NCBI GenBank assembly: GCA_964016885.1 | Contig: OZ024740.1 | Coordinates: forward strand, 180,730,001-180,794,000 | From: Eledone cirrhosa | Lineage: Eukaryota | Direction of reading: 5' to 3' | Length of the DNA: 64,000 bases | Shown here: positions 9,471 through 56,477 of the stretch, piece after piece | How the letters are laid out: each line of letters begins with the position of its first letter | How positions within the stretch are numbered: position 1 is the stretch's first letter | Position numbers and translations under genes: made by a program | Notes under the pieces: model-generated | What the model was told of the DNA's origin: nothing | The model's input: the letters and a program-made list of their open reading frames with translations, nothing else | The model's database searches: none

Positions 9471-9988
9471 AATACCGTAAATACTAGCAATACTTTGGAG
9501 AAATTATTATTTCAAAAGCAACTTACACGGCAGAATTTTATAAATATTCAATAGTGTTCCCAACTATAATGGTGCATTAAAGAAAGAAGGATAGAGTGGA
9601 AAAATAAAACATTAAAAGATTATAGAAATGACGAGGAATAGAAAAAGCACGTGCAAACATTATACTGCAACTAAACATACACACAAACTTACACAAAACG
9701 ATATATATATAAAAACAAATAACGAAACGCAATTAAATTTCGTTTCGTTTGTAACTCACTTTTGTATGACTGACGCTTAAACAATTAAGTTAAAAATGTA
9801 CATCCACATATGTATACTGAAATACTAGTATGCATATGAATACACACACGTATACATATGTAGATGTACCAAGTTTTTCACTGGTCACTTTACTGTGAGT
9901 GTCCAGCTATTCTGTATGTAAACACACAGACAAACCGGTTTTTAGAGTCATACTGGTTCTTGAGGAAACACCTTTCCTCTATTCTCCA

Positions 9989-10068
9989 GAAAGCCAGACA
10001 AGGAATATTGAACTAGTTTCGTTGTTGTTACAACTCATCAGCAATATTTACCTATCTTCCGGCCTTTC
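9989..10068 (-). ncRNA. Type I hammerhead ribozyme, family A (inverted copy)
   Basis: Reverse complement of the motif at 10512-10591; TCATCAG at 10035-10041. Confidence 0.88.
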
Positions 10069-10511
10069 TGGAGAATCGTAAAAGCACATATCGTTATATG
10101 CTTTTTCTATGAAAATTAGTAGTGGGCAGACTAATTTGCATAGAGTGTGAGTACGTACCGGTTCAACGGAGACGATAAAAACAAATAACGAAACGAAATT
10201 AAATTTCGTTTCGTTTGTAACTCACGTTTGTATGACTGAAGCTTAAACAATTAAGTTAAAAATGTACATCCACATATGTATACTGAAATACTAGTATGCA
10301 TATGAATACACACACGTATACATACTTAATTGTTTAGGCGTCAGTCATACAAAAGTGAGTTACAAACGAAACGAAATTTAATTTCGTTTCGTTATTTGTT
10401 TTTATCGCCTCCGTTGAACCGGTACGTACTCACACTCTATGCAAATTAGTCTGCCCACTACTAATTTTCATAGAAAAAGCATATAACGATATGTGCTTTT
10501 ACGATTCTCCA

Positions 10512-10591
10512 GAAAGGCCGGAAGATAGGTAAATATTGCTGATGAGTTGTAACAACAACGAAACTAGTTCAATATTCCTTGTCTGGCTTTC
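10512..10591 (+). ncRNA. Type I hammerhead ribozyme, family A
   Basis: Stem I AATATTG/CAATATT, extended by GAAAGGCCGGA/TCTGGCTTTC; core CTGATGA (10539-10545); stem II GTTGT-AACA-ACAAC; GAAA; palindromic stem III ACTAGT; GUU cleavage triplet (10567-10569). Confidence 0.9.
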
Positions 10592-10977
10592 TGAAGAATA
10601 GAGGAAAGGTGTTTCCTCAAAAACCAGTATGACTCTAAAAACCGGTTTGTCTGTGTGTTTACATACAGAATAGCTGGACACTCACAGTAAAGTGACCAGT
10701 GAAAAACTTGGTACATCTACATATGTATACGTGTGTGTATTCATATGCATACTAGTATTTCAGTATACATATGTGGATGTACATTTTTAACTTAATTGTT
10801 TAAGCGTCAGTCATACAAAAGTGAGTTACAAACGAAACGAAATTTAATTTCGTTTCGTTATTTGTTTTTATCGTCTCCGTTGAACCGGTACGTACTCACA
10901 CTCTATGCAAATTAGTCTGCCCACTACTAATTTTCATAGAAAAAGCATATAACGATATGTGCTTTTACGATTCTCCA

Positions 10978-11057
10978 GAAAGGCCGGAAGATAGGTAAAT
11001 ATTGCTGATGAGTTGTAACAACAACGAAACTAGTTCAATATTCCTTGTCTGGCTTTC
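10978..11057 (+). ncRNA. Type I hammerhead ribozyme, family A
   Basis: Same motif, CTGATGA at 11005. Confidence 0.9.
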
Positions 11058-11443
11058 TGGAGAATAGAGGAAAGGTGTTTCCTCAAAAACCAGTATGACT
11101 CTAAAAACCGGTTTGTCTGTGTGTTTACATACAGAATAGCTGGACACTCACAGTAAAGTGACCAGTGAAAAATTTGGTACATCTACATATGTATACGTGT
11201 GTGTATTCATATGCATACTAGTATTTCAGTATACATATGTGGATGTACATTTTTAACTTAATTGTTTAAGCGTCAGTCATACACAAGTGAGTTACAAACG
11301 AAACGAAATTTAATTGCGTTTCGTTATTTGTTTCTATCGTCTCCGTTGAACCGGTACGTACTCACACTCTATGCAAATTAGTCTGCCCACTACTAATTTT
11401 CATAGAAAAAGCATATAACGATATGTGCTTTTACGATTCTCCA

Positions 11444-11523
11444 GAAAGGCCGGAAGATAGGTAAATATTGCTGATGAGTTGTAACAACAACGAAACTAGT
11501 TCAATATTCCTTGTCTGGCTTTC
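11444..11523 (+). ncRNA. Type I hammerhead ribozyme, family A
   Basis: Same motif, CTGATGA at 11471. Confidence 0.9.
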
Positions 11524-11730
11524 TGGAGAATAGAGGAAAGGTGTTTCATCAAAAACCAGTATGACTCTAAAAACCGGTTTGTCTGTGTGTTTACATACAG
11601 AATAGCTGGACACTCACAGTAAAGTGACCAGTGAACAATTTGGTACATCTACATATGTATACGTGTGTGTATTCATATGCATACTAGTATTTCAGTATAC
11701 ATATGTGGATGTACATTTTTAACTTAATTG

Positions 11731-11818
<88 letters not shown>

Positions 11819-15179: not shown

Positions 15180-15243
<64 letters not shown>

Positions 15244-16240: not shown

Positions 16241-17810
16241 ATGTATATATGTGTATGTATATATATAAGTATGTATATAATACGTATGTATGTATGTATA
16301 TACATGTATGTATGTATATATGTGTGTATGTATATACATATATATGTATATATATATATGTATGTATATATATGTGTATGTACATACATGTATATGTATG
16401 TATATGTATATATGTATGTATATGTAATATGTATATGTTATATGTATGTATATGTATATGTGTATGTATATGTGTGTATGTATGTGTATGTATATGTATA
16501 TATATATATGTATATATATATGTATATATATGTATGTATGTGTATATATGTATGTATGTGTATGTATATGTATATATGTATGTATATATGTATGTATATG
16601 TGTGTATGTATATATATGTATATGTATGTATTATGAATGTACGTATGCATGTGTGTGTATGTTCGTATGTATGTATATGTATTCACCCACACCTTTCATC
16701 ACCATCGCTTCTGCTTGTCAATTCTGTTGAAGTTGTTGTTGTAACTGTTGTCAAAGTTGACATCCTTATGTTCATTTTCTTTGATTTCTTTCGTTTTTTT
16801 TTTTATCTCCCTATGGAATTCGTTGACAAGCTTCTTTTATTTATTTTATTCGTTTTCGTCATTCAAATGCATTCACACTGGCTGTCTAAGAGACGTACAA
16901 ATATGACTTATAAAACTTAGCAAACTAAACAAACTAAAGGGGCATCTAGCGCCCCCAAAGCTTCAAACTCCCCCCTAACGCTCCCTTGCTCCCAAATGAC
17001 CCCTTGAGCCCCGAACCGCCCCGAGGGGCATATTCCCCCCGTTGAGAACCTTTGTTGTATGTCATGAATATTGTGAAATGTACATTATCCATAACATTAT
17101 ACATATGAGAAGGGTGAGATTGAGGAAATACATAATTTTCCTTCTATGTGTTTGTCTCATTGTTCAACACTAATATTATTGATGGTTAGTATTGATATTG
17201 TGAAATACCAAAACTTGCATTTAAATATATTTATATATATGGATATTTTCTACAAGAGAAAGTTGATTGTATTCTTAAAATGAATTTCAGTTCAATATAT
17301 TCAAGAGTTTTGCGAGTAACGTATTTATCCGTAAGAGGAGATTATTAGAGGGCAACATATTTATTTACATATATAGAATTATATTTGTATAATTGTATTA
17401 TATGACGTATTTCGTATATGCATGCAATATATGTTATAGGTTCCGTTATTTTGTCAAATATTAAGCTATGGATTGTCATTTTCTATTTAGTGAACAAAAT
17501 AAATTATTCACGTATTGACATGCATCCATGTACATTACATTTCATATGCTGCTTCTGATATATATGTGTATATTAGTGTGTGTGTGCATGTGTGTGAGCG
17601 TGTGTCTGTGTATGTGTGTGTGTGTGTATCCCCGGTTTAATCGGGTGTAGCTACAGTAAATAAGTTGCTCAAAACATAGCAAAGTATAAATATTTGATAT
17701 AGAAATCGCTTCTACAGGACTAGAACGATTTAATTCCAAGGAATTCATCAGGAAAGCCCTTCCTGATGATTTGCTTCGAATAAAACAGCCATTCCTATAT
17801 TAAATTAAGT

Positions 17811-17882: not shown

Positions 17883-20421
17883 TAACTCGTCCCATGGTCT
17901 GAGGGCTCCACCACTACAGATATTACCTTCCAGTGTTCAACCACTATATACGTCTCCAGCAACGGTCAGCAGATCTTTTCACTACGTAGAAGTTTGGCTT
18001 TTAGCAGATCCTTCACCACGTGCGAGTTTGGCTTCTTACCCTGTGAGCACTCTCTCTATCTTCGTGTCCTACACAAGTTTGTGTCTCATCAACGTCAGTA
18101 TGGATTTATACGAACCGGATTACTCCCTGAAGAACATTCCCACTCACTCCAACCATGTTTACTAAAAGCCTCTCCTACAAAAAGCGTAAGATGTCGTCAG
18201 AAGCTTAAGATGGCGAACCCTAGCCTTTGACGGCAAAGTTACAGGCACCAATAACACCTTCAACCTGAAATCTAGAGCCTACCCTGCTAAGGTAACTCAA
18301 CTTGCTCCTTTCGAGGTGGACCTTCTTGACTTAGTCGCTAACATTTCCTTTCGCAAACACCCTAACACCTTTCAAACTAAACTTAGACATGATATTAAGA
18401 AATGTAGGTCTTCTAATAACACCTTCGTCCTTTCCGACAAATCTAATAATATTTACGAAGTCGTCAACAGCACTTTCCGCCACTTAGCTCATAACGCTAT
18501 TACTCCCAAATATAAGAAAGCTAACCCTATGTCCTACCACGCCATTAATACAGAAGCCAAACAACTTGCCGCCGCCCTTAAGGTAGATAAGAAGCTACAA
18601 TCTCTAGCTAAGCGGGAGGCGTTCCTCACCCTGAAAAATCACAAGGTAGACTTTACTTCTAACCGCACATGTAGACTAATAAACCCGGCACGCACAGATA
18701 TGGGACTAGTCAGTAAGGCCATACCTAGAAACATAGTTTAGACCATTAGGACCAAGTCCAACCTGCCTCAGTGGGAGAACAGCGACTCCGTAATTAACTG
18801 GTTTAACTCCTTCAAATCTAAAATAGCGAAGTTCACACAGTTTGACATTTACCCATCCATCTCAGAGACCCTGTTAAACAAAGCGTTGGACTTTTCTACC
18901 ACTTACACTACAGTCGATGGTTTAGACAGGGAAATCATCGCTCACTTTCGGAAAACCCTCCTCTTCAACAACGGAGTAGCCTGGGAAAAGAAGTCAACAA
19001 CTTCAGACCTATTCGATGTCTCCATGGGATAGATTGACAATGCTGACGTATGCGACTTGGTTGGCCTATTTATTTTAGACATATTACCGATTAGATTTCC
19101 GGACTTCCACACAGGAATATACCGCGACGATGGACTGACCTTATCGAGCCATAAAAGTGATCACGACCTCGACCGGTTTAAAAAAGACTTAGCTTCTACC
19201 TTCAATGTCTAACAGTAGCTACCAACCTCTGTAGCGTAGATTTCTTAGACATTAATTTAGACCTTCGCACAAAAACATACAGACCCTTCCATAAGCTAAA
19301 CGAAAAACTCAATTACATTTACAAGGACTCATGCCACCCTCCCACTGTTTTAAGAAACTTCGTAAATAATATTAGTACTAGAATGTCAAACCTCTCCTCT
19401 AATAAGGCTATATTTGACTGGGCGGCACCCTACTATAACAAGGCGTTAGCTAACAGCGGCTTCTTGCAACCTATCACTTACTCTCCTACTAACAACAACA
19501 GCAATAAGAAAAGAAAGCGTAACTATAGACAAACTATCTGGTGCTCTCCTCCCTTCTCACGCAACGTCAAATCCAATGTAGGCAAAAAATGTCTAGCCCT
19601 CTTAGATAGGCTCTTTCCAATAAGTCATAAATACTGTTCCATCTTTAACCGACACAAAGTAAAACTAGGATACTCCTGCGCTAAGAACATGAAGGCCCAC
19701 ATCACCAACAGCCCTAAGAACAACACCCCCACCAGGGTGCACTTGCCCTAAGCCCGGAGCTTGTCCCCTCCAACAGCAATGCAACACACCCGCTGTAGTT
19801 TATGAAGCTCTGGTCAATTCCAACCGACCAAATCAACCACAGGAGATCAAATCCTATGTGGGTATGGCAGAGGGCCGATTTAAGGAACGCTTCTTGAACC
19901 ATCAGTCGACCTTTAGGTACCCGGACAGACGTTCATCCACGATACTCGCGAGCCACGTATGGTTCCTCAAGGAGTCAAGTATAGACTACACCATTCAATG
20001 GAAAGCCATCACTAAGTCCAAGCCATACGCAAGGGGCAATTTGTTGTGTGGACTATGTATTGATGAACGAATAAATATTCTAAAGAGATTACGCAATAGT
20101 GATTGCCTAAACACGCGAAATGAATTCTTCACACGTTGTCCACACGTCTGGAAACATCTCTTACATAACTACAAAGTTCCGGATTGAATTACAACAACAT
20201 CCTAATTTTCTTATCAATTAGAAACTTTCTGACTTCCGCAGTTATCTCCCTTACACTTCTCGCACGCAATTTAGTATTGCCTGTGAGAAGTGATCTTTTC
20301 TGACCATGCGCGTTCGTACGGTTGTCCTTCCTGTCCGTATAACCATGTCCATTACGAGCTGACGATCCGCTAGGGTGAAACAATTGTTCTCGGTATGGTG
20401 AACTAACTGTTGTGTAACCAC

Positions 20422-20425
<4 letters not shown>
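17879..20425 (+). mobile_element. Penelope-like retroelement (Naiad-like), RT + GIY-YIG, frameshifted, inserted in (TA)n
   Basis: RT pieces CRLINPA, FDI..PSI and GIYRDDGL (about 19114); linker CTCPKPGACPLQQQC; endonuclease VVYEA...SYVGMAEGRFKERFLNHQSTF...CGLCIDE...LNTRNEFFTRCPH; (TA)n on both sides; hammerhead in the 3' pLTR. Confidence 0.9.
20355..20392 (+). ncRNA. Minimal type I hammerhead ribozyme in a PLE pLTR
   Basis: CGAG-CTGACGA-TCC GCTA GGGT-GAAA-CAATTG-TT-CTCG: stem I CGAG/CTCG, palindromic stem III ACAATTGT, GUU triplet. Confidence 0.8.
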
Positions 20426-29342: not shown

Positions 29343-29377
<35 letters not shown>

Positions 29378-29457
29378 CAACATGACCCCAGCAAAGCATA
29401 AACATATCGGTTTTAACACACGTTTTCAGATAGAGAATCTTGCTAAACAAATTCAGA

Positions 29458-29505
<48 letters not shown>

Positions 29506-29612
29506 AAGTATGTGTTCCTACGTGTAAAAAAATACATATAGGGAAACAAGTATTATCCAACCGTATGCCAATGTGGTTCAATGCCAGGTTAATAAATTAA
29601 CGAGCCAGAACA

Positions 29613-29782
29613 TATAAAATCAAGGTTTAGCAAATAGAGAAAAAGTTTTCAAATAAACTTTAAAAAGTTCGCTGTACTTACTATAAGGGTACATATAGTA
29701 AAGGTACATATAGTAAGTACAGCGAACTGTTTAAAATACATTTTAAAACGTTTTCTCTATTTGCTAAACCTTGATTTTATAT
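29613..29782. repeat. Short fold-back inverted repeat
   Basis: AAAATCAAGGTTTAGCAAATAGAGAAAA...AGTTCGCTGTACTTACTAT is mirrored by ATAGTAAGTACAGCGAACT...TTTTCTCTATTTGCTAAACCTTGATTTT; central direct repeat GGTACATATAGTAA x2. Confidence 0.85.
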
Positions 29783-30493: not shown

Positions 30494-30919
30494 TGGTAAA
30501 CGGAATAGAACATGCTGACAAATTGTTCACAGTTGAAAAATGGTTTAATTAGGAATAAAAGAGTATTAGCGATTGTATGGGTTAGTACTCAGTTGTGGTT
30601 TTAAGTTATTAAGTTTTTACCGGTTACGCACTTCTAAATGCTTTTCAAAAATAATTTTGAGATAGAGTGTCCGTGCTGTTTGCTCAGATCAGAGCAAACA
30701 GCTCGGACACTCTATCTCAAAATTATTTTTGAAAAGCATTTAGAAATGCGTAACCGGTAAAAACTTAATAACTTAAAACCACAACTGAGTACTAACCCAT
30801 ACAATCACTAATACTCTTTTATTCCTAATTAAACCATTTTTCAACTGTGAACAATTTGTCAGCATGTTCTATTCCGTTTACCAATATATAATAATTTGTG
30901 TGTTACACCTCTATTCTTT

Positions 30920-30980
<61 letters not shown>

Positions 30981-31584: not shown

Positions 31585-32660
31585 CAAACTTTGTCCAAAT
31601 GAGTTTGTTTCCTCATGAGTTCGAAGCTCGAGATTTATCCTTAATAGGATATTTCCGAAAGCTGACGAAACCGTAAGGGTAGAAACGTGATCCTTGTTTG
31701 TGTATATGCATTTTCTCTTCACATTTTAATTTTATACCTAATTGTGTATGGTTGACGGTATATTTAATCGATTTCCACGTGCTATTGAAGTGTTGGGTAA
31801 ATATTCTATAGCGGTTGGTCGCAAAATGATTGCTGTCGTTTATTTATCTAATATTTCTTCATAGGTGGCTTTTAATCTTATAGCCTGGTTTAATTGATTT
31901 TTGTGTGGTTAATTATGCTAATTGGGAGAGGAAATGGTGTATAAATATTATCAAATGATTCTATGGACATACTTTATAGTATATTTCTTTGATTATTTAA
32001 TGTATTAATTTAGCATTGAGCCACATCGTGAATGGTTGCGAAAACATATATCTGTGACTTTGTCTATTTGTGTATATGTATATCTTTATATTTAATCATC
32101 TCCCATAAGGTGAGATGCAATTTGGGCAATATTGGGCTGCGCTTTCTAGCAACCAGCCCACTCACCGTAAACAACCAATAATATTATTTCTGACTTGACC
32201 ACTGCCACGTCACAGTTCTTAGCCATTTTGAATTCGTTTCTGGCGGGGATCACTTAAGAACATTCTCTGTCCAAATGAGTTTGTTTCTCATGAGTTCGAA
32301 GCTCGAGATGTTATCCTTAATAGGATATTTCCGAAAGCGAACGAAACTCTAAGGGTAGAAACGTATCCTGGTATGTGTATATGCATTTTCGTCTTCTAAC
32401 TTTAATTTTATACCTAATTGTGTATGCTTGAAGGTATATTTAATCGATTTCCACGTGCTATTGAAGTGTTGGGTAAATACATTATAGCGGTTGGTCGCGA
32501 ATAGATTGCTGTCGTTTATTTATCTAATATTTCTACATAGGTGCCTTTTAATCTTATTGCCTGGTTTAAATGATTTTTTGTGTGGTAAATTATGCTAATT
32601 GGGAGAGGAAATGGTGTATATATATATTATCAAATGATTCTATGGACATACTTTATAGTA
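31585..32660 (+). mobile_element. Diverged direct repeat of about 395 bp (31585-31982 and 32265-32660), probably a tandem PLE pLTR relic with degenerate hammerheads
   Basis: The two copies align along their length; copy 1 has AAG-CTGACGA-AACCGTAAGGGTA-GAAA-CGTGATC-CTT (31659-31695); the core in copy 2 is mutated. Confidence 0.6.
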
Positions 32661-35600: not shown

Positions 35601-38312
35601 TGGCACTTACTTAAATGTAAGTATGTATGTATACGTACATACATATATGTATACAGACGTACAGTAGCATGCATATATATATATATATATATATACATAT
35701 ATACACATATGCATACAGGTACACATACATATATGCACGCATCAGTTTAGCCGACGTTTATTATAACGCCTGCTTTGTTCGTTTGTTTGTCAACAAATCG
35801 AACAGCCTGAATTTATGCCATACGGTGTTAAGGCAACCACGTCACCTTTTTGTTCAACACTGACACAGGAACGATGTACTAGTTTCAAGCTTGTTAGCTA
35901 TCATCAGCACCGTTTACCCATCTGCCAGATAGTTGAACGTTCGAAAGTATATACTTTCCTTATGAAAATTAACGGCTGAGCAGCCTAATTTGCATATTGA
36001 GTGAGTTAAATCGGTCAGGCATACCGAAAACGATAAGTTGAAAAAAATGAAAACGAAATTTCATTTCTCACTCTTAGTATGGCACTTACTTAAATGTAAG
36101 TATGTATGTATACGTACATACATATATGTATACAGACGTACAGTAGCATGCATATATATATATATATATATATACATATATACACATATGCATACAGGTA
36201 CACATACATATATGCACGCATCAGTTTAGCCGACGTTTATTATAACGCCTGCTTTGTTCGTTTGTTTGTCAACAAATCGAACAGCCTGAATTTATGCCAT
36301 ACGGTGTTAAGGCAACCACGTCACCTTTTTGTTCAACACTGACACAGGAACGATGTACTAGTTTCAAGCTTGTTAGCTATCATCAGCACCGTTTACCCAT
36401 CTGCCAGATAGTTGAACGTTCGAAAGTATATACTTTCCTTATGAAAATTAACGGCTGAGCAGCCTAATTTGCATATTGAGTGAGTTAAATCGGTCAGGCA
36501 TACCGAAAACGATAAGTTGAAAAAAATGAAAACGAAATTTCATTTCTCACTCTTAGTATGGCACTTACTTAAATGTAAGTATGTATGTATACGTACATAC
36601 ATATATGTATACAGACGTACAGTAGCATGCATATATATATATATATATATATACATATATACACATATGCATACAGGTACACATACATATATGCACGCAT
36701 CAGTTTAGCCGACGTTTATTATAACGCCTGCTTTGTTCGTTTGTTTGTCAACAAATCGAACAGCCTGAATTTATGCCATACGGTGTTAAGGCAACCACGT
36801 CACCTTTTTGTTCAACACTGACACAGGAACGATGTACTAGTTTCAAGCTTGTTAGCTATCATCAGCACCGTTTACCCATCTGCCAGATAGTTGAACGTTC
36901 GAAAGTATATACTTTCCTTATGAAAATTAACGGCTGAGCAGCCTAATTTGCATATTGAGTGAGTTAAATCGGTCAGGCATACCGAAAACGATAAGTTGAA
37001 AAAAATGAAAACGAAATTTCATTTCTCACTCTTAGTATGGCACTTACTTAAATGTAAGTATGTATGTATACGTACATACATATATGTATACAGACGTACA
37101 GTAGCATGCATATATATATATATATATACATATATACACATATGCATACAGGTACACATACATATATGCACGCATCAGTTTAGCCGACGTTTATTATAAC
37201 GCCTGCTTTGTTCGTTTGTTTGTCAACAAATCGAACAGCCTGAATTTATGCCATACGGTGTTAAGGCAACCACGTCACCTTTTTGTTCAACACTGACACA
37301 GGAACGATGTACTAGTTTCAAGCTTGTTAGCTATCATCAGCACCGTTTACCCATCTGCCAGATAGTTGAACGTTCGAAAGTATATACTTTCCTTATGAAA
37401 ATTAACGGCTGAGCAGCCTAATTTGCATATTGAGTGAGTTAAATCGGTCAGGCATACCGAAAACGATAAGTTGAAAAAAATGAAAACGAAATTTCATTTC
37501 TCACTCTTAGTATGGCACTTACTTAAATGTAAGTATGTATGTATACGTACATACATATATGTATACAGACGTACAGTAGCATGCATATATATATATATAT
37601 ATATATACATATATACACATATGCATACAGGTACACATACATATATGCACGCATCAGTTTAGCCGACGTTTATTATAACGCCTGCTTTGTTCGTTTGTTT
37701 GTCAACAAATCGAACAGCCTGAATTTATGCCATACGGTGTTAAGGCAACCACGTCACCTTTTTGTTCAACACTGACACAGGAACGATGTACTAGTTTCAA
37801 GCTTGTTAGCTATCATCAGCACCGTTTACCCATCTGCCAGATAGTTGAACGTTCGAAAGTATATACTTTCCTTATGAAAATTAACGGCTGAGCAGCCTAA
37901 TTTGCATATTGAGTGAGTTAAATCGGTCAGGCATACCGAAAACGATAAGTTGAAAAAAATGAAAACGAAATTTCATTTCTCACTCTTAGTATGGCACTTA
38001 CTTAAATGTAAGTATGTATGTATACGTACATACATATGTGTATACAGACGTACAGTAGCATGCATATATATATATATATATATATACATATATACACATA
38101 TGCATACAGGTACACATACATATATGCACGCATCAGTTTAGACAAACAAACGAACAAAGCAGGCGTTATAATAAACGTCGGCTAAACTGATGCGTGCATA
38201 TATGTATGTGTACCTGTATGCATATGTGTATATATGTATATATATATATATATATATATGCATGCTACTGTACGTCTGTATACATATATGTATGTACGTA
38301 TACATACATACT

Positions 38313-38317
<5 letters not shown>
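32680..38317 (-). mobile_element. Retrozyme-like tandem array, family B (479-bp unit, about 11.4 copies), plus an inverted partial unit at 38141-38317, inserted in (TA)n
   Basis: Exact 479-bp period (ORFs at 33164, 33643, 34122 and onward); one unit is 4 bp shorter in its (TA)n; each of the 11 full units has a minus-strand hammerhead. Confidence 0.9.
32986..33054 (-). ncRNA. Type I hammerhead ribozyme, family B (first of 11 copies; the others start at 33465, 33944, 34423, 34902, 35381, 35860, 36339, 36818, 37293, 37772)
   Basis: Minus sense reads CTGGCA GATGGGTA AACGGTG-CTGATGA-T AGCT AACA AGCT T-GAAA-CTAG-TA-CATCGTT CCTG TGTCAG: stem I AACGGTG/CATCGTT, distal stem CTGGCA/TGTCAG, palindromic stem III ACTAGT, GUA triplet. 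Confidence 0.88.
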
Positions 38318-38377
<60 letters not shown>

Positions 38378-38441
38378 TATAAAGTATGTCCATAGAATCA
38401 TTTGATAATATATATATACACCATTTCCTCTCCCAATTAGC

Positions 38442-38446
<5 letters not shown>

Positions 38447-38531
<85 letters not shown>

Positions 38532-38923
38532 TATATTACTTTATAAAGGAAGAAGAAACATTAGACATAAAGAAAACATTATATATACGCAATATCTTTC
38601 TACATCCTCGACTGCGCAGATTTGTGGCTACTATGCAAAAGAATTACATCATAGAGATGCAGTATTTTTATGTGGTTTGCCAACTTATCAAGAGAATACC
38701 TCATTAAAAGTTTCAAAACACGTCCACAAGGCTTGAGAGAGAATCCCGGAAAGGCGCAGAGGGAACTTATCACGTGAAACAGCGGTCAAGAAACTGCCGG
38801 GACATTAATACCCCCTCCGCAATCATAGAGCAACAACAGTTAAGGTTGGCACCACACAAATTCAGGATATATGTGTATATGCATGTATATGTATGTACTC
38901 CTATATATCTGTGTATTTATTTT

Positions 38924-38969
<46 letters not shown>

Positions 38970-39361
38970 AAAATAAATACACAGATATATAGGAGTACAT
39001 ACATATACATGCATATACACATATATCCTGAATTTGTGTGGTGCCAACCTTAACTGTTGTTGCTCTATGATTGCGGAGGGGGTATTAATGTCCCGGCAGT
39101 TTCTTGACCGCTGTTTCACGTGATAAGTTCCCTCTGCGCCTTTCCGGGATTCTCTCTCAAGCCTTGTGGACGTGTTTTGAAACTTTTAATGAGGTATTCT
39201 CTTGATAAGTTGGCAAACCACATAAAAATACTGCATCTCTATGATGTAATTCTTTTGCATAGTAGCCACAAATCTGCGCAGTCGAGGATGTAGAAAGATA
39301 TTGCGTATATATAATGTTTTCTTTATGTCTAATGTTTCTTCTTCCTTTATAAAGTAATATA

Positions 39362-39422
<61 letters not shown>
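38447..39422. repeat. Perfect palindrome with unique arms of about 405 bp, (TA)n at the centre and both ends
   Basis: 38525-38930 is mirrored by 38963-39368 (identical ORFs on opposite strands); axis at about 38946. Confidence 0.95.
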
Positions 39423-39429
<7 letters not shown>

Positions 39430-39516
39430 TTCGTTTCTGAATTTGTTTAGCAAGATTCTTATTGGCAATAAGACCCTCCCAAAGTATAACTATATATATA
39501 TATATAAATATATATA

Positions 39517-40028
39517 TATTGGTAAAAAGGAAAGGAAAATGCTCACATATTGTTCCCAGTGAAAAATAGTTTAATTAGGAATAAGTAAAAATTAGTAATA
39601 GTATTGGTTAGTATTCAGTTTTGGTTTTAAGTTTTTACCGGTTACGCATTTCTAATGCTTTTAAAAATAATGTTGACATAGAGCGCACGTGATGTTTGCT
39701 CTAATCTGATTAGTTTTGGAAATTCTACCTGATTTATGTAAAAAAAGTGGCTCCACATGTATGAAAAAATTCTTGTAGTCAAAACAATTTTAATTGGTCG
39801 GTAGAGGTCATGTGAATGTTAAAAATTGATTTTGCGCCAAATGTAGGTTTGTCTCGACTGATCGAGAAGTCACTGAAAAATAAGTCTTTTAAGACAAATG
39901 TGTGTGTGTAGTAGTAGTAGTAGTAGTAAAGAGGTTCCTTGTTGTGATAATGGTCAGCAGGGATGTGTGTGCGAACCGCAACCTTCTGACAGGTTAACAG
40001 TTCAGATGCCTATTAAGACAAGTGTGTG

Positions 40029-40075
<47 letters not shown>

Positions 40076-40201
40076 CAGAGTAATTCGTGGTAGAAGGATC
40101 GGTCAGTAGGAATGTGTCTGTACGTGTGTGGGGGATATTTTATCATGTTAAAAGATATTTTTCAGCTCTTGTCTTATACGGAGAAGTGTGTGTGTGTGTG
40201 T

Positions 40202-40250
<49 letters not shown>

Positions 40251-41898
40251 TCTCTCTCTTTGTATGTTAATGTACGCATGTGTATGTGTATGTGTATATG
40301 TGTGTCTGTGTGTGTGTGTGAATGTGTGTGTGTGTGTGTGGGTGGACAAGTATTTTTGTGATACTGGTAAAAATGGTGTACATTATTCGATATTTTCAAT
40401 AAAACACGATTCTCTCAATAGAACATCAAAAACCTTAATAATAAAAGGTGTGAAATGATATATAGTATTGGCATAAGCCCCAAGGTATGTGTGCGAGTGT
40501 CCAGATTGTACGTACTGCAAGGGGAATCCATTAGGCCTTACCGTATTGGAATATTTGTGTACAAATATGTATGTGCTCATCAGTGTGCAATGCATGTGTG
40601 CGTATATGTATGTGTGTGTGTCAGCACGTTTATATCTATAGACATCAAAAGGTATTCAAATTTGTGTATATTTGTGTTGCACCATAGAACATGTGTGTTT
40701 ACGTAAGTCATTGTGTTCATATGTGGATAGAGATGTATGTAGGATGTATGCTGATGTAGGTATGTATGTTGACGTGTGTATGATGTGGGTTCGTCTTAGG
40801 TAGAAGTGTTTAGACGGGGTCCGTATTTGTTAATAAAGTGAGATTCCTTGCTGATGAGCTGGGTGTGGGCGGCATTATCTATAAATTTGTAGAGGGGAAA
40901 GATTCTGAAGATGGGATGATTTGAGGCGGCGCGTGTATCAATGTGTTCACTCAGTGGTATTTTCCTGTATTCCCGTATTTTAATTTGGGATCTATGGACT
41001 GTCATGCGTTGGCGGAGGCTGAATTGGTCTGGCCTATGTATTGTTCTCGACAACCTGAGCAAGTTAATACATATATTAGATTTTCTGATGCGCATGTGAA
41101 ATTGTGTTTTATTATAAAACGTTGTCTTTCTTTGAAATAGAATTCCGAACCTTCTATTAGGTTGATGGATATGCCACAGTTGGATCTATCGCATTTTTTT
41201 ACTGTGGGTTTCGTTGTTGTGGTTGACAGTAGTTTGGCATGCGTTAGGATGTTTTTCATTGACTTAGATTGTCTTTTGCTCTTTATGATATCGTGTGTTC
41301 GTAGGATTTGGTTAATTCTATGGTCCTTTTTTAACACATGGAAGTTCTGGAGGATGGTCTCAAAGGCATCATTGTTGAGGGGGTTGTGTGTGGAGATGTA
41401 TGGAAGAGCTTTTAGTTTCGGTTGATTTACTTTAGGGTGTCTAAGGTCCTGGGTACTGAGTTTTAGGGCACGTTGGATTCCATTGTCAATTAGTGATGCA
41501 GGGTAGTCCCTGCCTATTAGTGTGTCCTTTAGTTCTTGTAGCCGTAAGTAACAGGTGTTTTTATTGGAGACTATAGTACAGATTCTCTTGGCTAAGCTGT
41601 AGGGAATATTAATTTTAACGTGTATAGGGTGGAAAGAGTTGAAAGGAAGATATTGCTTTGAGTCTGTGGGCTTGTAGTATATGTTTGTTTCTATTTTTTT
41701 GTTATGAATCTTAATGAGGATGTCGAGGAAGGGGAGTTGTTGATGGCTGTATTCCATCGTGAAGTTAATATTCGTGTTGAGCCCATTTATAAGGGTGTGA
41801 AATTCTTTAAGTTTCTCGATGTTTTCGTGCCAAAGGATGAAGCAGTCATCTAGATATCGCTTCCAGTTCCTTTCTATGTGTGAGTGGAGAGTGTTTCC
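39517..41898 (-). mobile_element. Inverted 3' portion of the Neptune-like Penelope element (RT C-terminus, GIY-YIG, 3' UTR)
   Basis: ORF 41002-41913 (-): WKRYLDDCF, LPFLDILI, YYKPTD, GIY-YIG NLIYVLTCSGCREQYIGQT; mirrors about 43650-46000. Confidence 0.92.
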
Positions 41899-44800
41899 AT
41901 AACAGAACCGCACAACAACTTCGCAAACCCCCAGCCACTAACAAAAGAAGAAGGAAGCACCACACCGAAGATGAACTTCCCAACCTCGCTACCATAAGAA
42001 GGAACAAAAACCCTAGAAATCATCTCCCCCAGAATGACATTTACAACTGTTCCCCTTCAAGGAGACACCATACCAAATCACTCAACTACTACGCGGATGC
42101 CTCAACGTCAAACATAGGGAAAATATACCACCACCATGATAGATGTAACAACTTCCCCGCCTCAAGGGGACAGCAAGGTAATTTCCATGTTCTCAACTCT
42201 CGCTTCCACAATACACAACAAACCCACACCACACGATACAACTAACAACGTAGGCCACCTATAACACCACAATCCAACATGGCACATAGAAACACACATC
42301 CATACTCGCAATACAGGAACACCCCATTCAATCTACAACCATGAACCCGAACCACATTTTACAACAACAAGGAATATAACAAACGCAGGAGACCACTTAA
42401 CATCAGCAGACAACCCCTCTACCCCAACCATTTTTTAGACACAGCACACAGATATAGGCAAACAAAATAACACAAGACAGGGAGGAGAAACCGAGAGTAA
42501 TAAAAATTATCAATCTAACTAGTGCAGAACCAACACCCAACATTATCAACTTACTCTCCAAAGGTCTTAAATTCACACCGACCCTTCTACGTCCTAACTA
42601 CTATGAAATGAAGGAAGACATCACAGACTTTTGTAGAAAGTTACGATTCAGTGAAGAATTATTCGACCAGTATAATGAGGATGAATCATTAGCCAGAAAT
42701 AGAAGCAATTACACCCCATCAAAAGGTAGAAATAAAATCCTGGACGAATTCTGTGAACACATCACAAACTTCCCTTACCAGCACTAGCACAGACAAAACC
42801 AAAAGCCAAACCTCAACAAGAAAGGATGGGAAGAATTAAATAGATTAAAAACCGACAGAACCATTACAATTAAAGAGGCTGATAAAGGGAGTACAGTAGT
42901 CCTAATGGAGACAGAATTCTATATTAACTTAGCGCTCTACACTTTCGAAAAAGAAACATACTACGAAAAGGCTGAACACTACAATCAACAGAAAATTATG
43001 AGAAACCGAAAAGCTCTGATCAACCAATACAAAGAAGGACTCACTAACAAGGAATTCAGCTTCATCACAGACTTCACAAGTAAATCCAGCCTTTTCTACA
43101 GTATCCCTAAAGTACATAAAAGCGAATTAATAAATAAGGCATTCAAGGAAGCCACAGACATAGTCATCAATGTCCCCTCACCCAATGATCTCAACTTAAG
43201 ACCTATAATAGCAGGCCCCGCCTGCGAAACCCACCGCCTTAGCAACTTCATTGATACCTTCTCAAGCCTTTTCTCAAACACATTAAAAGCTATATAAGGG
43301 ACGACCTAGATATGCTCAATCACCTCCCTAATATGCCCCTTTCTGAACAAACCCTACTAGTGACGTTCGATGTAGTCAACCTATACTCCAACATCCCCCA
43401 CAACCTAGGAATAGAAGCTATCGAATTATTGCTGGATAATTACCACAATGAACTCCCACAACGCATCGAAAAAGAAATGGAGATAGAGGGACTCAAATTT
43501 ATCTTGGAGAACAATTACTTCGTTTTCAATAGCAAACCCTACAGGCAGAAATCTGGGACCGTTATGGGAACGAAAACAGCCCCCACTTATGCCAACCTAG
43601 TCATGGGATACTTGGAAATCACCCTCTACACTAAAGTACTAAACAAATTTGGAAACACTCTCCACTTACACATAGAAAGGAACCGGAAGCGATATCTAGA
43701 TGACTGCTTCATCCTTTGGCACGAAAACATCGAGAAACTTAAAGAATTTCACACCCTTATAAATGGGCTCAACACGAATATTAACTTCACGATGGAATAC
43801 AGCCATCAACAACTCCCCTTCCTCGACATCCTCATTAAGATTCATAACAAAAAAATAGAGACAGACATATACTACAAGCCCTCAGACTCAAAGCAATATC
43901 TTCCTTTCAACTATTGCCACCCTAGACACGTTAAAATTAATATTCCCTACAACTTAGCCAAGAGAATCTATACTATAGTCTCCAATAAAAAACACCTGTT
44001 ACTTACGGCTACAAGAATTAAAGGACACACTCATAGGCAAGGACCACCCTGCATCACTAATTGACAATAGAATCCAACGTGCCCTAAAACTCAGTACCCA
44101 GGACCTTAGACACCCTAAAGTAAATCAACCGAAACTAAAAGTTCTTCCATACATCTCCAACAAAAAACCCACTCAACAATGAGGCATTTGACACCATCCT
44201 CCAGATCTTCCCTGTGTTAAAAAAGGACCATAGAATTAACCAAATCCTATGAACACACGATATCATGAAGAGCAAAAGACAATCTAAGTCAATGAAAAAC
44301 ATCCTAACACATGCCAAACTACTGCCAACCACATCAATGAAACCCACAGTAAAAAAATGCGATAGACCCAACTGTGGCATGTGCATCCACCTAACAGAAG
44401 GTTCGGAATTATATTTCAAAGAAGGACAACGTTTTATAATAAAACACAATCTCACATGCGCATCAGAAAATCTAATATATGTATTAACTTGCTCAGGTTG
44501 TCGAGAACAATACATAGGCCAGACCAATTCAGCCTCCGCCAACGTATGGCTGTCCATAGATCCCAAATTAAAATACAGGAATACAGGAAAATACCACTGA
44601 GTGAACACATTTATACCTGTGCGGCCAAAATCATCCCAACTTCAGAATCTTTCCCCTCTACACATTTAAAGATACTGCCACCCACACCCAGCGCATCAGT
44701 AAGAAATTTCACTTTATTAACAAATACGGACCCCGTATAAACACTTCTCCCTAAGACGAACCCTCAACATACACACGTCAACATACATACTTACATCGGC

Positions 44801-45442
44801 ATACATACTTACATCGGCATACATCCTACATAGATCTCTATCCACATATAAACACAATGACATACGTAAACACACATGTTCTATGGTGCAACACAAATAT
44901 ACACAAATGTGCATACCCTTTGATATTTATAGATATAAACGTGCCGACACACGCACATACATATACGTACACATGCATTGCACAGTAATGGGCACATACA
45001 TGGTTGTACACAAGTATTCCAATACGGCAAGGCCTAATGGATTCCCCTATCAGTACGTACAATCTGGACACTCACACACACCTTGGTCTTATGCCAATAC
45101 TATATATCATTCCACACCTTTTATTATTAAGGTTTTTGATGTTCCATTGAGAGAATCGTTTTTACTGAAAATATCGAATAATGTACACCATTATTACCAG
45201 TATCACAAAAATACTGGTCCACCCACACACACACATTCATACACACACACACACATATATATATACACACACATACACACGCGTACATTAACATACAAAT
45301 ATACACACACACACTTCCCCGTATAAGACAAAGGCTGAGAAATATATTTTAACATGTTAAAATATCCCCCACACACGTACAGACACATTCCTACTGACCG
45401 ATCCCTCTACCACGGATTACTCTGCTACACACACACACACAC

Positions 45443-45501
<59 letters not shown>

Positions 45502-46030
45502 TCTTAATAGGCATCTGAACTGTTAACCTGTCAAAAGGTTGCGGTTCGCACACACATCCCTGCTGACCATTATCACAACAAGGAACATCTTTACTACTAC
45601 TACTACTAGTACTACTACACACACACACACACATATTTGTCTTAAAAGACTTATTTTTCAGTGAATTCTCAATCAGCCGAGACAAACCTACATTTGGCGC
45701 AAAATCAATTTTTAACATTCACATGGACCAATCAAAATTGTTTTGACCACAAGAATTTTTTCATACATCTTTTTTTACATAAAACAGGTAGAATTTCCAA
45801 AACTAATCAGATTAGAGCAAACATCACAGGCGCTCTATGTCAAAATTATTTTTGAAAAGCATTAGAAATGCGCAACCGGTGAAAACTTAAAACCAAAACT
45901 GAATACTAAGCAATACTGTTACTAATTTTTACTCATTGCTAATTAAACTATTTTTCACTGGGAACAATTTGTCAGCATTTTCTCTTCCTTTTACCAATAT
46001 GACTCGTGTGTTACACCTCTATTCTTTTAA
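41899..46030 (+). mobile_element. Penelope-like retroelement (Neptune-like), RT + Cys linker + GIY-YIG, frameshifted, with long microsatellite-rich 3' UTR
   Basis: LLSKGLKFTP, IKEADKGS, FYSIPKVHK, LRPIIAG, FDVVNLYSNIP, GTVMGTKTAPTYANLVM, RYLDD, CDRPNCGMC linker, IYVLTCSGCREQYIGQT; ends GTGTTACACCTCTATTCTTTTAA followed by (TA)n. Confidence 0.93.
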
Positions 46031-46439: not shown

Positions 46440-47282
46440 TATATACATACACGCATCTATATACGTACATACACGGGCATACGCGAAAACACCCGCCATA
46501 CATTCCTATACATGCATATACATAACAAAACATAAACCCGCGCGACACATGTACGCGCACACATACGAGCGTTTACACGAAATACACATTAAATATATAT
46601 ATATAAACATATATAAAAATATATATAAACGTCTATAAAAATATATATATAAACGTATATAAATATACAGATATAAATACGTATATAACGCACGCACACA
46701 CATACCTACAGGAAAATACACATATGTTCACCACACGACGTCAACCAAAACACAATGTACACAAATACACACCTTACATACGTGCAAACAGACATACACA
46801 CAACAACAAAATACACATATACATAACCATATACACATATACCAGTATAAATAATATAACATATACACCTATAACAAATACAAGACGTAAATTATTCGCG
46901 TATTGTTCGTACTATCCCATGGGGTATAATGTGGGGCTGTAATACAGAAAAGTGTTATGCAATATGTGTTTACAAGTCGAAATTGCCTCAGAATGTTGTT
47001 TAAGATGTGATCATTGGCGTAGAGTGTCCCAGTGTAAACTGTTTTGGGTGTGGCTGTCTTTTAGACTGCAGATATAAGCTGAAAGTGAAGTTACAGTCCT
47101 TCTTAAAAGGTTAAGAAAAATATGTGTGTGCATGTAAATACGGTGTTTGAATCTATTGGCGGTTAACCCTATGTAGGCCCTACTTGACGAGGGTGTTTCG
47201 ACCTTACATTTGTAGACAGTGTTACTGGAAACCCATTTCCCGGATATAGGGCAGTGAACCTGATTCCTACTATTACAGTTAC

Positions 47283-47283
<1 letters not shown>
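46440..47283 (-). pseudogene. 5'-truncated Naiad-like PLE fragment (GIY-YIG and 3' UTR)
   Basis: [25 protein letters not shown]...[17 protein letters not shown]...TSLSAYI in ORF 47011-47475. Confidence 0.8.
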
Positions 47284-47317
<34 letters not shown>

Positions 47318-47332
47318 GTATATATATGTATA

Positions 47333-47397
<65 letters not shown>

Positions 47398-47519
47398 AAG
47401 GTAAGTAGAATCGAAGCTTTGGCTGTGGCCAAGCAAAGTCGACCTACAATAAGGAATGAGTAGAAAAGCGGTCAATAAGGGTAGGTCCTTCGAGTGATAA
47501 CATTACGTTTTAAAAGCTT

Positions 47520-48098
47520 GACAAATTGAACATTGCGGTAGGCAAAAACCAACCATACAATACCAAAAACAACGAAAGACCTAATTAGGTTAACATATAT
47601 ATACGAAGAAACTCGGTCACTTCTCACAGGCAATACTAGACTGCGTGCGAGAGGTGTAAGTGAGATAATTGCGAAAGTCCGGAAAGATTTTAGGTTGAAA
47701 AGAAAATTAAAATAAAATTAAAAATAACATTACAAAGAATCAGTCTGCAATAGTGATTGCCTAAACACGAGAAGTGAATTTTTCACACGTTGTCCACACG
47801 TCACCAAACATCTATTGCATAACTACAAGGCCCCGGACTGATTCTTTGTAATTTTATTTTTAATGTTATTCTAATTTTGTTTTCAACCTAAAAACTTTCC
47901 GGACTTTCGCAGTTATCTCCCTTACACCTCTCGCACGCAGTCTAGTATTGCCTGTGAGAAGTGACCGAGTTTCTGCGCATGCGCGTTCGTACGGTTGTCC
48001 TTCCTGTTCCTATAAACATGCACAACCCGAGCTGAAGATCCGTAAGGGGAAACAATTGTTCTCGGTATGGTGAACTAACTGTTGTGTAACCACTTCTA
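47520..48098 (+). mobile_element. Solo pLTR of the PLE family at 17879, with an inverted partial copy upstream
   Basis: 47746-48098 is similar to 20092-20425 (encodes ..DCLNTRSEFFTRCPHVTKHLLHNYK); 47610-47735 is the reverse complement of about 47850-47972. Confidence 0.85.
48027..48065 (+). ncRNA. Minimal type I hammerhead ribozyme in a PLE pLTR
   Basis: CCGAG-CTGAAGA-TCC GTAA GGG-GAAA-CAATTG-TT-CTCGG: 5-bp stem I, GNRA-capped stem II, palindromic stem III, GUU triplet. Confidence 0.82.
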
Positions 48099-53867: not shown

Positions 53868-53934
<67 letters not shown>

Positions 53935-53941
<7 letters not shown>

Positions 53942-54611
53942 ATAGAGGTGTAACACACAAGTTATTATATATTGGTAAACGGAATAGAAAATGCTGACAA
54001 ATTGTTCACAGTGAAAAATAGTTTAATTAGGAATAAGTGAGAATTAGTAATTGTATTGGTTAGTATTCAGTTTTGGTTTTAAGTTTTACCGGTTGCGCAT
54101 TTCTGATGCTTTTCAAAAATAATTTTGAGATAGAGCGTCCGTGATTTTTGCTCTGATCTGATTAGTTTTGGGAATTCTACCTGTTTTTATGTTAAAAATG
54201 TGGCACCAGCGGTATTAAAATAAGTTTTGCGCCAATTCGTGTTGCAAAAATTATTGTGGTCAAAACAATTTTGATTGGTCGGTAGAGGTCATGTGAATGT
54301 AAAAAATTGATTTTGCGCCAAATGTAGGTTTGTGTCGGCTGACTGAGAAATGACTCTTTCACAACAAATATGTGTGTGTGTGTGTGTGTAGTGGTAGTAG
54401 TAAAGTGTTCGTTGTTGTGATAATGGCCAGCAGGGATGTGTGTACGAACCGCAGCCTGTTGACAGTTCAAATGCCTATTAAGACAAGTGTGTGTGTGTGT
54501 GTAGCAAAGTATTTCGTGGTAGAGGGATGGTCAGTAGGAATGTGTTTGTAAGTGAGTGGGGGATATTTTAACATGTTAAAAGATATTTTTCAGCTCTTGT
54601 CTTATACGGAG

Positions 54612-54693
<82 letters not shown>

Positions 54694-55718
54694 CTCTTTG
54701 TATGTTAATATACGCGTGTGTATGTGTGTGTGTATATATGTGTGCGTGTGTGTGTGTGTGGGTGGGTGGACCAGTATTTTTTTCCTGGTAAAATGTTGTA
54801 CATTATTCGATATTTTCAGTAAAATCGATTCTCATAATAGAACATCAAAAACCTTAATGATATATAGTATTGGCATAATACCAAGGTATGTGTGAGTGTG
54901 TGTGTGTGTGTCCAGATTGTACGTACTGAAAGGGGGATCCCTTAGGCCTTGCCGTATTGGAATACCTGTGCACAAATATGTATATGCAGTGTGTTCAGAA
55001 AGTGTATAACTGTGCACAAATTGTATACTTGTGCGCAAATTGTACACATGTATCTGGAGTGTGTCCAGAAATTGTATACCTGTGCACAAATTGTACACTT
55101 GTGCACAAATTGTACACATGTATCTGGAGTGTGTCCAGAAATTGTATACCTGTGTATAAATATGTATCTGGATATTATTTGTACATATTTGTACACAGGT
55201 ATACAATTTCTGGACACACTCCAGATACATGTGTACAATTTGTGCACAAGTGTACAATATGTTTACAGGTATAAAATTTCTGGACACACTCCAGATACAT
55301 ATTTGTGCCCAGGTATTCCAATACGGCAAGGCCTTACAATCTGGACACACTCCAGATACATATTTGTGCACAGGTATACAATTTCTGGACACACTGCAGA
55401 TACATATTTGTGCACAGGTATTCGAATACGGCAAGGCCTAAGGGATCCCCTTTCAGTACGTACAATCTGGACACACACACACACTCACATATACCTTGGT
55501 ATTATGCCAATACTATATATCATTTCACACCTTTTATTATTAAGGTTTTTGATGTTCTAATATGAGAATCGATTTTACTGAAAATATCGAATAATGTACA
55601 CCATTTTACCAGGAAAAAAAATACTGGTCCACCCACCCACACACACACACACATTCTCACACACACACACATATATATACACACACACATGCACACGCGT
55701 ACATTAACATACAAAGAG

Positions 55719-55783
<65 letters not shown>

Positions 55784-56021
55784 CACACACTTCTCCGTAT
55801 AAGACAAGAGCTGAAAAATATGTTTTAACATGTTAAAATATCCCTCACTCACTTACAGACACATTCCTACTGACCATTCCTCTACCACGAATTACTCTGC
55901 TACACACACACACACACACACACGTGTCTTAATAGGCATTTGAACTGTCAACAGGCTGCGGTTCGCACACACATCCCTGCTGACGATTATCACAACAACG
56001 AACACTTTACTGCTACTACTA

Positions 56022-56081
<60 letters not shown>

Positions 56082-56477
56082 TTGTTGTGAAAGTGTCATT
56101 TCTCAGTCAGCCGACACAAACCTACATTTGGCGTAAAATCAATTTTTTACATTCACATGACCTCTACCGACCAATCAAAATTGTTTTGACCACAATAATT
56201 TTTGCAACACGAATTGGCGCAAAACTTATTTTAATACCGCTGGAGCCACATTTTTAACATAAAAACAGGTAGAATTCCCAAAACTAATCAGATCAGAGCA
56301 AACATCACGGACGCTCTATTTCAAAATTACTTTTGAAAAGCATTAGAAATGCGCAACCGGTAAAACTTAAAACCAAAACTGAATACTAACCAATACAATT
56401 ACTAATTCTCACTTATTCCTAATTAAACTATTTTTCACTGTGAACAATTTGTCAGCATTTTCTATTCCGTTTACCTA
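53935..56477. mobile_element. 2.5-kb fold-back element built from two inverted 3' UTRs of the Neptune-like PLE, non-coding
   Basis: 53970-54975 mirrors 55405-56475; both arms match 45000-46030; the centre (54950-55440) is a mosaic of short repeats; (TA)n at both ends. Confidence 0.9.

Follow-up and report, generated by a model that had tools for sequence, protein, structure and literature searches.

What inserts retrozymes, the non-coding hammerhead repeats of animal genomes, into new sites? Two such repeats, designated here retrozymes A and B, lie among several Penelope-like elements (PLEs) in a 64,000-nt stretch of the genome of Eledone cirrhosa (assembly GCA_964016885.1, contig OZ024740.1, positions 180,730,001–180,794,000 of the forward strand; hereafter the window, in whose coordinates all positions are given). 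PLEs have been named as strong candidate mobilizers of retrozymes, beside long interspersed nuclear elements (LINEs) (PMC7229834). A preprint links retrozymes to PLEs through co-occurrence, shared ribozymes, and homology to the pseudo-long terminal repeats (pLTRs) of PLEs (10.64898/2026.07.22.740005). Such co-occurrence, ribozyme sharing, and pLTR similarity are so far the only grounds on which a LINE or a PLE mover has been argued. Thus, the partnership was already known as a hypothesis, as was the insertion footprint of PLEs. The new element is the presence of the PLE-specific two-site tail on hammerhead retrozymes, where it is conserved between two families and, in the cases described below, always pairs a long with a short end. 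The tail has been called unique to PLEs (PMC11167929), which makes its presence at retrozyme ends mechanistic evidence. We consider it likely that PLE machinery mobilized A and B, a judgement that covers two-ended priming and the fold-back of a singly primed copy together.

Head-to-head insertions in (TA)n tracts

Structures and their ends were mapped by self-BLAST and end mapping within the window, and arm polarity was assigned from hammerhead cores and the PLE open reading frame (ORF); the evidence for the junctions is the assembly sequence. In each insertion, L denotes the arm and site of the long end and S those of the short end. Unit coordinates of the retrozymes are counted from the predicted ribozyme cut.

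A first-pass annotation of the window had proposed that six structures share one geometry: retrozymes A and B, a Neptune-like PLE (N1), two PLE-derived palindromes (N2 and N3, which we assign to the family of N1), and a solo pLTR, which we assign to a Hydra-like PLE. Our mapping recovered the geometry in all six (Table 1). The junctions lie at 10324 in A and 38141 in B, where the arms overlap by 1 nt, at 41899/41900 in N1, at about 30684–30688 in N2, at about 55175 in N3, and at 47745/47746 in the solo pLTR. In every structure the 5' sides are joined and the 3' ends face outward, as the annotation also had it. Its further statement, that the outer ends lie in or near (TA)n without a normal target site duplication (TSD), holds for location: 11 of the 12 ends are no more than 10 nt away from a (TA)n tract at least 10 nt long, and the single miss (47601) adjoins a 9-nt AT run only. 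The part about TSDs does not carry over because a duplication inside (TA)n is invisible, so that its absence cannot be claimed. Indeed, (TA)n targets are reported to make TSDs hard to see (PMC8557442). The longest repeat shared by the two flanks is pure TA in six of eight insertions, an interrupted TA repeat of 23 nt in N1, and a 12-nt direct repeat of G plus TA in A. The repeats flanking N1 and A are compatible with hidden TSDs.

The window has a GC content of 34.6% and 131 (TA)n runs of at least 10 nt, and 2.9% of its non-TA positions lie within 10 nt of a run. Nine copies of a short interspersed nuclear element (SINE) served as a control. None of their 18 ends is within 10 nt of (TA)n (the nearest is at 17 nt), and the near-full-length copies have flanking repeats of 10–15 nt in four of five cases and no fused inversion. 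With a seventh structure included (63265–63789), 13 of 14 ends abut (TA)n against 0 of 18 for the SINE (Fisher p = 4e-8), and the retrozymes alone contribute four of four (p = 1.4e-4); both p values are inflated because the six structures had been chosen partly for their TA flanks. Furthermore, a broken LINE in the window also sits between (TA)n and (ACAT)n tracts, so (TA)n flanks alone are not specific to PLEs.

A tail between two family-fixed 3' ends

A tail on one arm is a stronger sign of PLE activity than the (TA)n geometry on which the first-pass annotation relied. Each of these head-to-head pairs has unequal outer ends, with the extension on one arm only. All three Neptune-like insertions end at the same short and the same long site, which are 34, 40, and 36 nt apart in N1, N2, and N3, respectively, and match the published PLE tail of 30–40 bp (PMC3846280, PMC8557442). 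A long end is paired with a short end in all seven insertions of defined polarity, an outcome with a probability of 0.008 if the arms chose at random. The S site of the Hydra-like pair and the pair at 63265 are one case each and hence establish the asymmetry rather than a fixed site.

The retrozymes have tails of their own. The L and S ends of A are at unit positions 302 and 229 (a tail of 73 nt) and those of B at 323 and 262 (61 nt). A and B are homologous over 314 of 429 aligned nt (73%), with a local score of 84 against 22 ± 2.8 for shuffled sequences (maximum 31, n = 300). In this alignment, the S end of B (260–262) falls on positions 228–230 of A and the L end (321–323) on positions 300–302. 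The chance of such a coincidence is about 0.0012, both when any of the 479 positions may serve as an end and when the choice is confined to the 117 that end in TA or AT. Unlike the ends of the SINE control, those of A and B fall at two sites inside the unit. In the predicted folds of both families, the loop of a small hairpin contains S, and L follows a long hairpin and a U-rich run (fold z-scores of −2.6 for A and −3.0 for B).

Two simpler determinants of the ends were considered. The ribozyme cut was rejected because the ends lie 229–323 nt downstream of its predicted position. Priming by the best annealing to TA is disfavoured, as B contains an internal 23-nt tract of alternating TA that neither of its outer ends uses.

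By its sequence, A is a tandem non-coding hammerhead repeat of the retrozyme type that lacks long terminal repeats (non-LTR), with predicted self-cleavage. Its four hammerhead cores match the Rfam model HH9 (37.7 bits, E = 2.2e-08, under the gathering score of 52). B has 11 cores, a weaker HH9 match (E = 0.037), and a U-U mismatch closing stem II. Neither A nor B has an ORF of at least 120 amino acids or a tblastn match from 120 PLE proteins. The arms are 99.2% identical in A and 100% in B, and the 11 units of B differ by one substitution and one 4-nt loss. Rolling-circle copying of a single circle would give this near-identity, as would recent local expansion.

Copies of family A beyond the locus

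One unit of A was compared with four of 24 listed public sequencing runs, for family A only. In one run (X1), 1114 contigs match the unit, indicating many dispersed copies of the family. Six of its 43 loose ends were listed, holding 24 contigs, and among these 20 of the 24 contigs end at the two sites of the tail: 12 pass into (TA)n at 10871 (unit 302), six at 10802 (unit 233), and two at 10797 (unit 228). The S site is less sharp than L in this run. Because the consensus of the flank at 10871 and the positions 10797 and 10802 are unlike this locus, other loci use the same two sites. Another run (X4) yielded one unit-length contig that joins unit to unit, as do several contigs of X1. The raw-read runs X23 and X24 contributed no matching reads, to which no weight attaches. 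The summed depth of X1 halves just beyond the L site, a value to which we gave no weight and which is not a copy number. Pattern scans for relatives of A and B returned no loci in metagenome contigs and none in viral contigs.

We also noted two other loose ends of X1. Before 11037, one contig continues with 12 letters that are the reverse complement of unit 8–19. In this single case, the predicted hammerhead cut is at the centre of a palindromic head-to-head joint, which could be a genomic insertion with 5' ends set by the ribozyme or a fold-back formed in the library. Behind 10677, a variant of family A alters both sides of a small stem and keeps its pairing, which may hint at a selected RNA structure.

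Penelope-like elements of the window

N1, N2, and N3 derive from a PLE with a reverse transcriptase (RT) of the PLE type, a GIY-YIG endonuclease at the C terminus, a CX2-5CxxC linker, and the CCHH motif. The ORF of N1 has the motifs GLKF, DKG, a CX4CxxC linker, and CCHH, and its homologs carry RVT_1 and GIY-YIG. We call the element Neptune-like for the motifs that it appears to share with Neptune and Nematis. Most of its named homologs come from mollusc records or from entries annotated as symbionts of bivalve gills. No hammerhead core was found in N1 (39520–46030) and no Rfam hammerhead in 45500–46030, where decay or a variant core is possible. The other PLE is Hydra-like by its RWR and DKS motifs, a CTCPKPGAC linker, the hammerhead core, and a TA end; the Hydra clade is defined by RWK, DKT, a CxCX5C linker, a hammerhead, and a (TA)n target. 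An Atlas cluster with GIY-YIG in 22% of its members matched it with a score of 0.94, which we take as a lead only. Near its relics, we identified a fragment of a second Hydra-like endonuclease frame (47011–47502, minus strand), split by a 113-nt TA-rich tract. The Hydra-like element is preceded by a (TA)32 run, and just to the left of this run is a small old inverted repeat (17729–17783) with a degenerate hammerhead half-core in each arm.

Both PLEs are broken by stops and frameshifts in the window. Their arms are 94.4% (N1), 97.9% (N2), 96.5% (N3), and 93.8% (Hydra-like) identical, and those of the pair at 63265 are 92.1% identical. Judged by arm identity, the window PLEs are older than A and B (94–98% versus 99–100%). 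In all three Neptune-like insertions, each arm is most closely related to its partner arm and has private variants in common with it, which indicates that each pair arose in one event.

Table 1. Insertions, tails, ribozymes, and control elements mapped in the window (L, long-end arm or site; S, short-end arm or site).
Feature	Position	Strand	Details
Retrozyme A, L arm	9712–10324	minus	615 nt, from unit position 153 to position 302 of the following unit; 3' end in (TA)5; 73-nt tail
Retrozyme A, S arm	10324–11730	plus	Three 466-nt units and a further 9 nt (unit 221 to 229); 3' end in (TA)12
Retrozyme A, type I hammerhead	10521–10592	plus	Predicted cut after 10569; minimal palindromic stem III
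Retrozyme A, further hammerhead copies	10987–11058, 11453–11524; 9988–10059	plus (first two); minus (third)	
Family A tail	10799–10871	plus	Between S site (unit 228–233) and L site (unit 302); contains a 13-bp hairpin
Hydra-like PLE, broken	18100–20424	plus	RWR, DKS, YRDDG, CxCx5C, GIY-YIG-like; ends in (TA)14, sharing its L site with 48096
Additional inverted pair	29503–29777		74-bp arms, the left one extended by about 110 nt; TA at both ends; candidate, family and polarity unassigned
N2, head-to-head Neptune-like 3' ends	30494–30923		S arm left, L arm right; 40-nt tail
Retrozyme B, L arm	32683–38141	minus	11 hammerhead cores in 11.4 units of 479 nt that are near-identical (unit 127 to 323); 3' end in (TA)12; 61-nt tail
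Retrozyme B, S arm	38141–38315	plus	Unit 86 to 262; 3' end in (TA)30
Inverted copy of the left flank of B	38377–38444	minus	Identical to 32591–32658; between two TA runs
N1, Neptune-like PLE, S arm	39520–41899	minus	5'-truncated inside RT; without tail
N1, Neptune-like PLE, L arm	41900–46030	plus	Broken RT-GIY-YIG ORF 42458–44748; 1.3-kb 3' region; 34-nt tail
Hydra-like head-to-head pLTR	47601–48096		Right arm about 106–117 nt longer, with hammerhead core (48032)
N3, head-to-head Neptune-like 3' regions	53937–56475		36-nt tail on the L arm (left); S arm on the right; 70-bp subrepeats at centre
LINE, broken (control and rival mover)	57936–62060	plus	RT plus zinc and restriction-like endonuclease motifs; flanked by (TA)n/(CATA)n and (ACAT)18
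SINE copy (control)	58455–58642	minus	(ATT)n tail, 14-bp TSD, no inversion
Additional pLTR-like head-to-head pair	63265–63789		Hammerhead core 63658; TA at both ends; only left arm extended, by about 30–37 nt

Mode of insertion

The first-pass annotation saw in the window an autonomous partner and its parasite leaving the same footprint. The retrozymes do carry the PLE footprint, including the two-site tail. That the window also shows the partner is not supported: its PLEs are broken, older, and without sequence shared with A or B beyond low-complexity TA/CA tracts. We think that the retrozymes were probably inserted in trans by the RT-endonuclease of a (TA)n-targeting PLE through two-ended priming. 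Priming on both strands of a cleaved (TA)n site, which the annotation had suggested, fits both the polarity of the arms and the behaviour of a purified PLE protein in vitro. In that system, the spacing of two internal sites at which the RT starts gives the tail, the protein cleaves and extends each of the two strands of the target, and the ribozyme need not cut (PMC11167929). Given target-primed synthesis, the arm polarity means that the complementary DNA (cDNA) of each arm runs inward from a 3' end of the target, on opposite strands. A PLE enzyme, probably a dimer, would open the (TA)n site and would extend the two broken ends from different start sites, the long one for one end and the short one for the other. 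The template would be circular or multimeric retrozyme RNA, copied for 0.4 to 11 laps, after which the two cDNA ends would be joined 5' side to 5' side through about 1 nt of microhomology. RNA structure likely sets the start sites, with a small hairpin loop at S and a U-rich stretch after a long hairpin at L.

Several observations weigh against two-ended priming by a PLE. Only two retrozyme insertions are seen whole, their junctions are known from the assembly and not from raw reads, and their tails (61–73 nt) exceed the published 30–40 bp. Compared with eight PLE or repeat termini in the window, A and B have no pLTR match beyond low-complexity TA/CA tracts. A consensus fold of the tail region, drawn from only the two sequences of A and B, added nothing. 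The S arm of A begins 8 nt upstream of the S site and spans exactly three laps (three units plus 9 nt), and derived variants are common to units of A (at unit 138 in two S-arm units and at unit 281 in one unit of each arm). These features of A point to later duplication or conversion, or to a mixed template. Inversions also arise in the window without tails, as in the mirror palindromes centred on (TA)n described below. Among the loose ends listed for X1 there is no strand-changing joint, not even that of this locus, and X1 may come from the sample behind the window. Lastly, the S arm lies inside the L arm in four of the five cases judged (N1, N2, the Hydra-like pair, and B; not A).

This nesting of arms would suit PLE machinery that primes only once. 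The cDNA started at the long site would fold back or jump onto itself, the endonuclease would trim the second arm, a copy made from DNA, at the short site, and the units might expand later. The starts of the two arms are also close to each other (8–90 nt) in N2 and the Hydra-like pair and, once positions are taken modulo the unit, in A and B, and the flank of B was copied in inverted form. Furthermore, self-priming (PMC3846280) and endonuclease-mediated resolution of the tail (PMC8557442) have been proposed for PLEs. We nevertheless judge a single priming event unlikely: in A the S arm (1407 nt) exceeds the L arm (615 nt) in length, the arms of N1 are offset by 1.75 kb, and both tail boundaries are RT start sites in vitro, where both strands are extended (PMC11167929). 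It is decidedly improbable, in our estimate, that A and B, instead of being free parasites, are parts of an autonomous PLE (its terminal repeat or its tandem 3' region), inserted in cis with 5' truncation and amplified locally by unequal crossing-over. The near-uniform units of B and the derived variants shared among units of A would agree with such amplification, and the preprint cited above derives retrozymes from pLTRs and discusses local amplification (10.64898/2026.07.22.740005). However, the arrays hold the full circle of the unit, including sequence 3' of the long site, and have neither an ORF nor a match to the 120 PLE proteins. The unit-to-unit contigs of X4 and X1 argue in the same direction, as does the single non-coding unit plan kept by two families that are 27% apart.

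Could the insertions have formed without any PLE? A microsatellite-targeting LINE might have moved the retrozymes, or the inversions might be DNA fold-backs at (TA)n cruciforms or chimeras of the assembly. The window does contain a LINE that has a restriction-like endonuclease motif and is flanked by (TA)n/(ACAT)n tracts, as well as TA-centred mirror palindromes, one of which has 402/402 identical arms and lies beside B, and the reliance on assembled junctions applies here too. Yet a mirror or a chimera has equal ends that run into the flank, whereas the insertions have two different, family-fixed stops, at which a fold-back chimera would not halt. The arms of the PLEs are 2–8% diverged and are therefore not read chimeras. 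The LINE and the SINE have simple-repeat tails and no fused inversion, the SINE with TSDs, and other copies of family A stop at the same two internal sites without a templated tail. We regard an origin without PLEs as very improbable. Twin priming of L1 elements also produces a head-to-head joint with outward 3' ends; it copies adjacent parts of one RNA, so that the 5' end of one arm abuts the 3' end of the other. A and B share the joint with L1 insertions and differ in their offsets (76/81 nt in A and 135/237 nt in B) and in having both arms copied from the same sequence, and we rejected twin priming of one linear RNA for these reasons.

A more specific form of two-ended priming is possible, if doubtful, namely that long and short ends are an obligate pair. 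A PLE dimer would use both RNA start sites, one for each end of a double-strand cut in (TA)n. Retrozymes would keep the loading signal (small hairpin, long hairpin, and U-rich stretch) and would be copied by rolling circle from both ends of the target.

Surroundings of the insertions

The stretch to the right of retrozyme B is young and odd. The inverted copy of the left flank of B matches the adjacent copy exactly and not the paralog at 31912–31979. In the same stretch lies a palindrome (38527–39366) with 402/402 identical arms centred on (TA)18. A second mirror palindrome centred on (TA)n occurs at 2808–3133 (81/86 identical in the arms), and both palindromes are without a tail and without a match to PLE proteins. 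They have a second geometry, which perhaps arose by DNA fold-back at (TA)n or, for the perfect one, as an assembly artefact. Alignments of B with the Neptune-like 3' region (score 54) and with the 38527 palindrome (score 41) were rejected as TA/CA-rich and of low complexity. Matches of the palindromes to Rfam miRNA models were likewise rejected, being hairpin or low-complexity matches that fall short of the gathering scores.

A third non-coding repeat is present in two copies (31589–31984 and 32265–32658) that are 92% identical. A hammerhead-like core is present at 31662 in the first copy, and the second terminates in the TA tract that received B. Between two TA runs at 39425–39490 are 66 nt composed of two parts of an 87-nt piece found at 29375–29461, one of them inverted. 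This may be a minimal long-plus-short head-to-head insertion with a tail of about 55 nt.

The region of the LINE (57605–62133), which we take to be R4/Dong-like, appears to be the product of a microsatellite-targeting element. It is interrupted by a SINE with a 14-bp TSD, and a second fragment lies at about 62200–62876. The window also includes a degenerate (TA)n array of 1.6 kb (4983–6570; 791 copies) with higher-order subrepeats.

Relation to known systems and significance

A and B resemble the animal non-LTR retrozymes in their non-coding tandem units, each with one type I hammerhead, their low GC content, and their many dispersed copies. Dependence on PLEs has been proposed for such retrozymes (PMC7229834, 10.64898/2026.07.22.740005). 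Units of 466 nt (A) and 479 nt (B) compare with published sizes of 150–450 bp (PMC7229834) and 51–972 bp (10.64898/2026.07.22.740005). The available parts of these accounts do not describe head-to-head arrays, (TA)n targeting, or a two-site tail, and they invoke a pLTR homology of which we found none for A and B locally. For example, neither "tail" nor "head-to-head" occurs in the main text of the preprint (10.64898/2026.07.22.740005), and the passages found in PMC12602865 hold nothing on insertion structure. Our literature search, with subscription papers and repeat-database annotations outside its scope, returned no description of the tail or the head-to-head geometry in retrozymes.

The endonuclease-containing PLEs of the Neptune and Hydra types have an inverted, 5'-truncated copy joined head to head, a tail at one end, and (TA)n targets that hide TSDs (PMC8557442, PMC3846280). 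The PLE relics of the window fit this description fully. A and B depart from it in that they encode no protein, run in tandem around a closed unit, and have tails of 61–73 nt instead of 30–40 bp. A and B are also like the Poseidon element PAc of Anolis as studied in vitro (PMC11167929), which has two adjacent internal starts, an AT-rich target, extension of both strands, and a 3' end that is not the ribozyme cut. PAc was tested on RNA of its own pLTR and ORF, with no strand difference in the start site reported; here, the RNA is non-coding and each insertion has one long and one short end. The non-autonomous Chlamys elements, such as MRC1 (PMC8557442), are likewise non-coding dependants of PLEs, with pLTRs and multicopy head-to-tail insertions. 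However, elements of the MRC1 type have 3' ends similar to those of their autonomous partners; A and B have no match among the PLEs of the window and carry canonical hammerheads.

The retrozyme tail names the exact nucleotides where the RT should start, a prediction that can be tested with the published in vitro PLE system. The pairing of long and short ends also bears on the way in which PLEs form their inverted structures. If the two ends are indeed an obligate pair, the PLE tail, the inverted pLTR, and the retrozyme arrays would be products of one mechanism, and a cis-element of 100 nt would be sufficient for the PLE-driven insertion of a foreign RNA.

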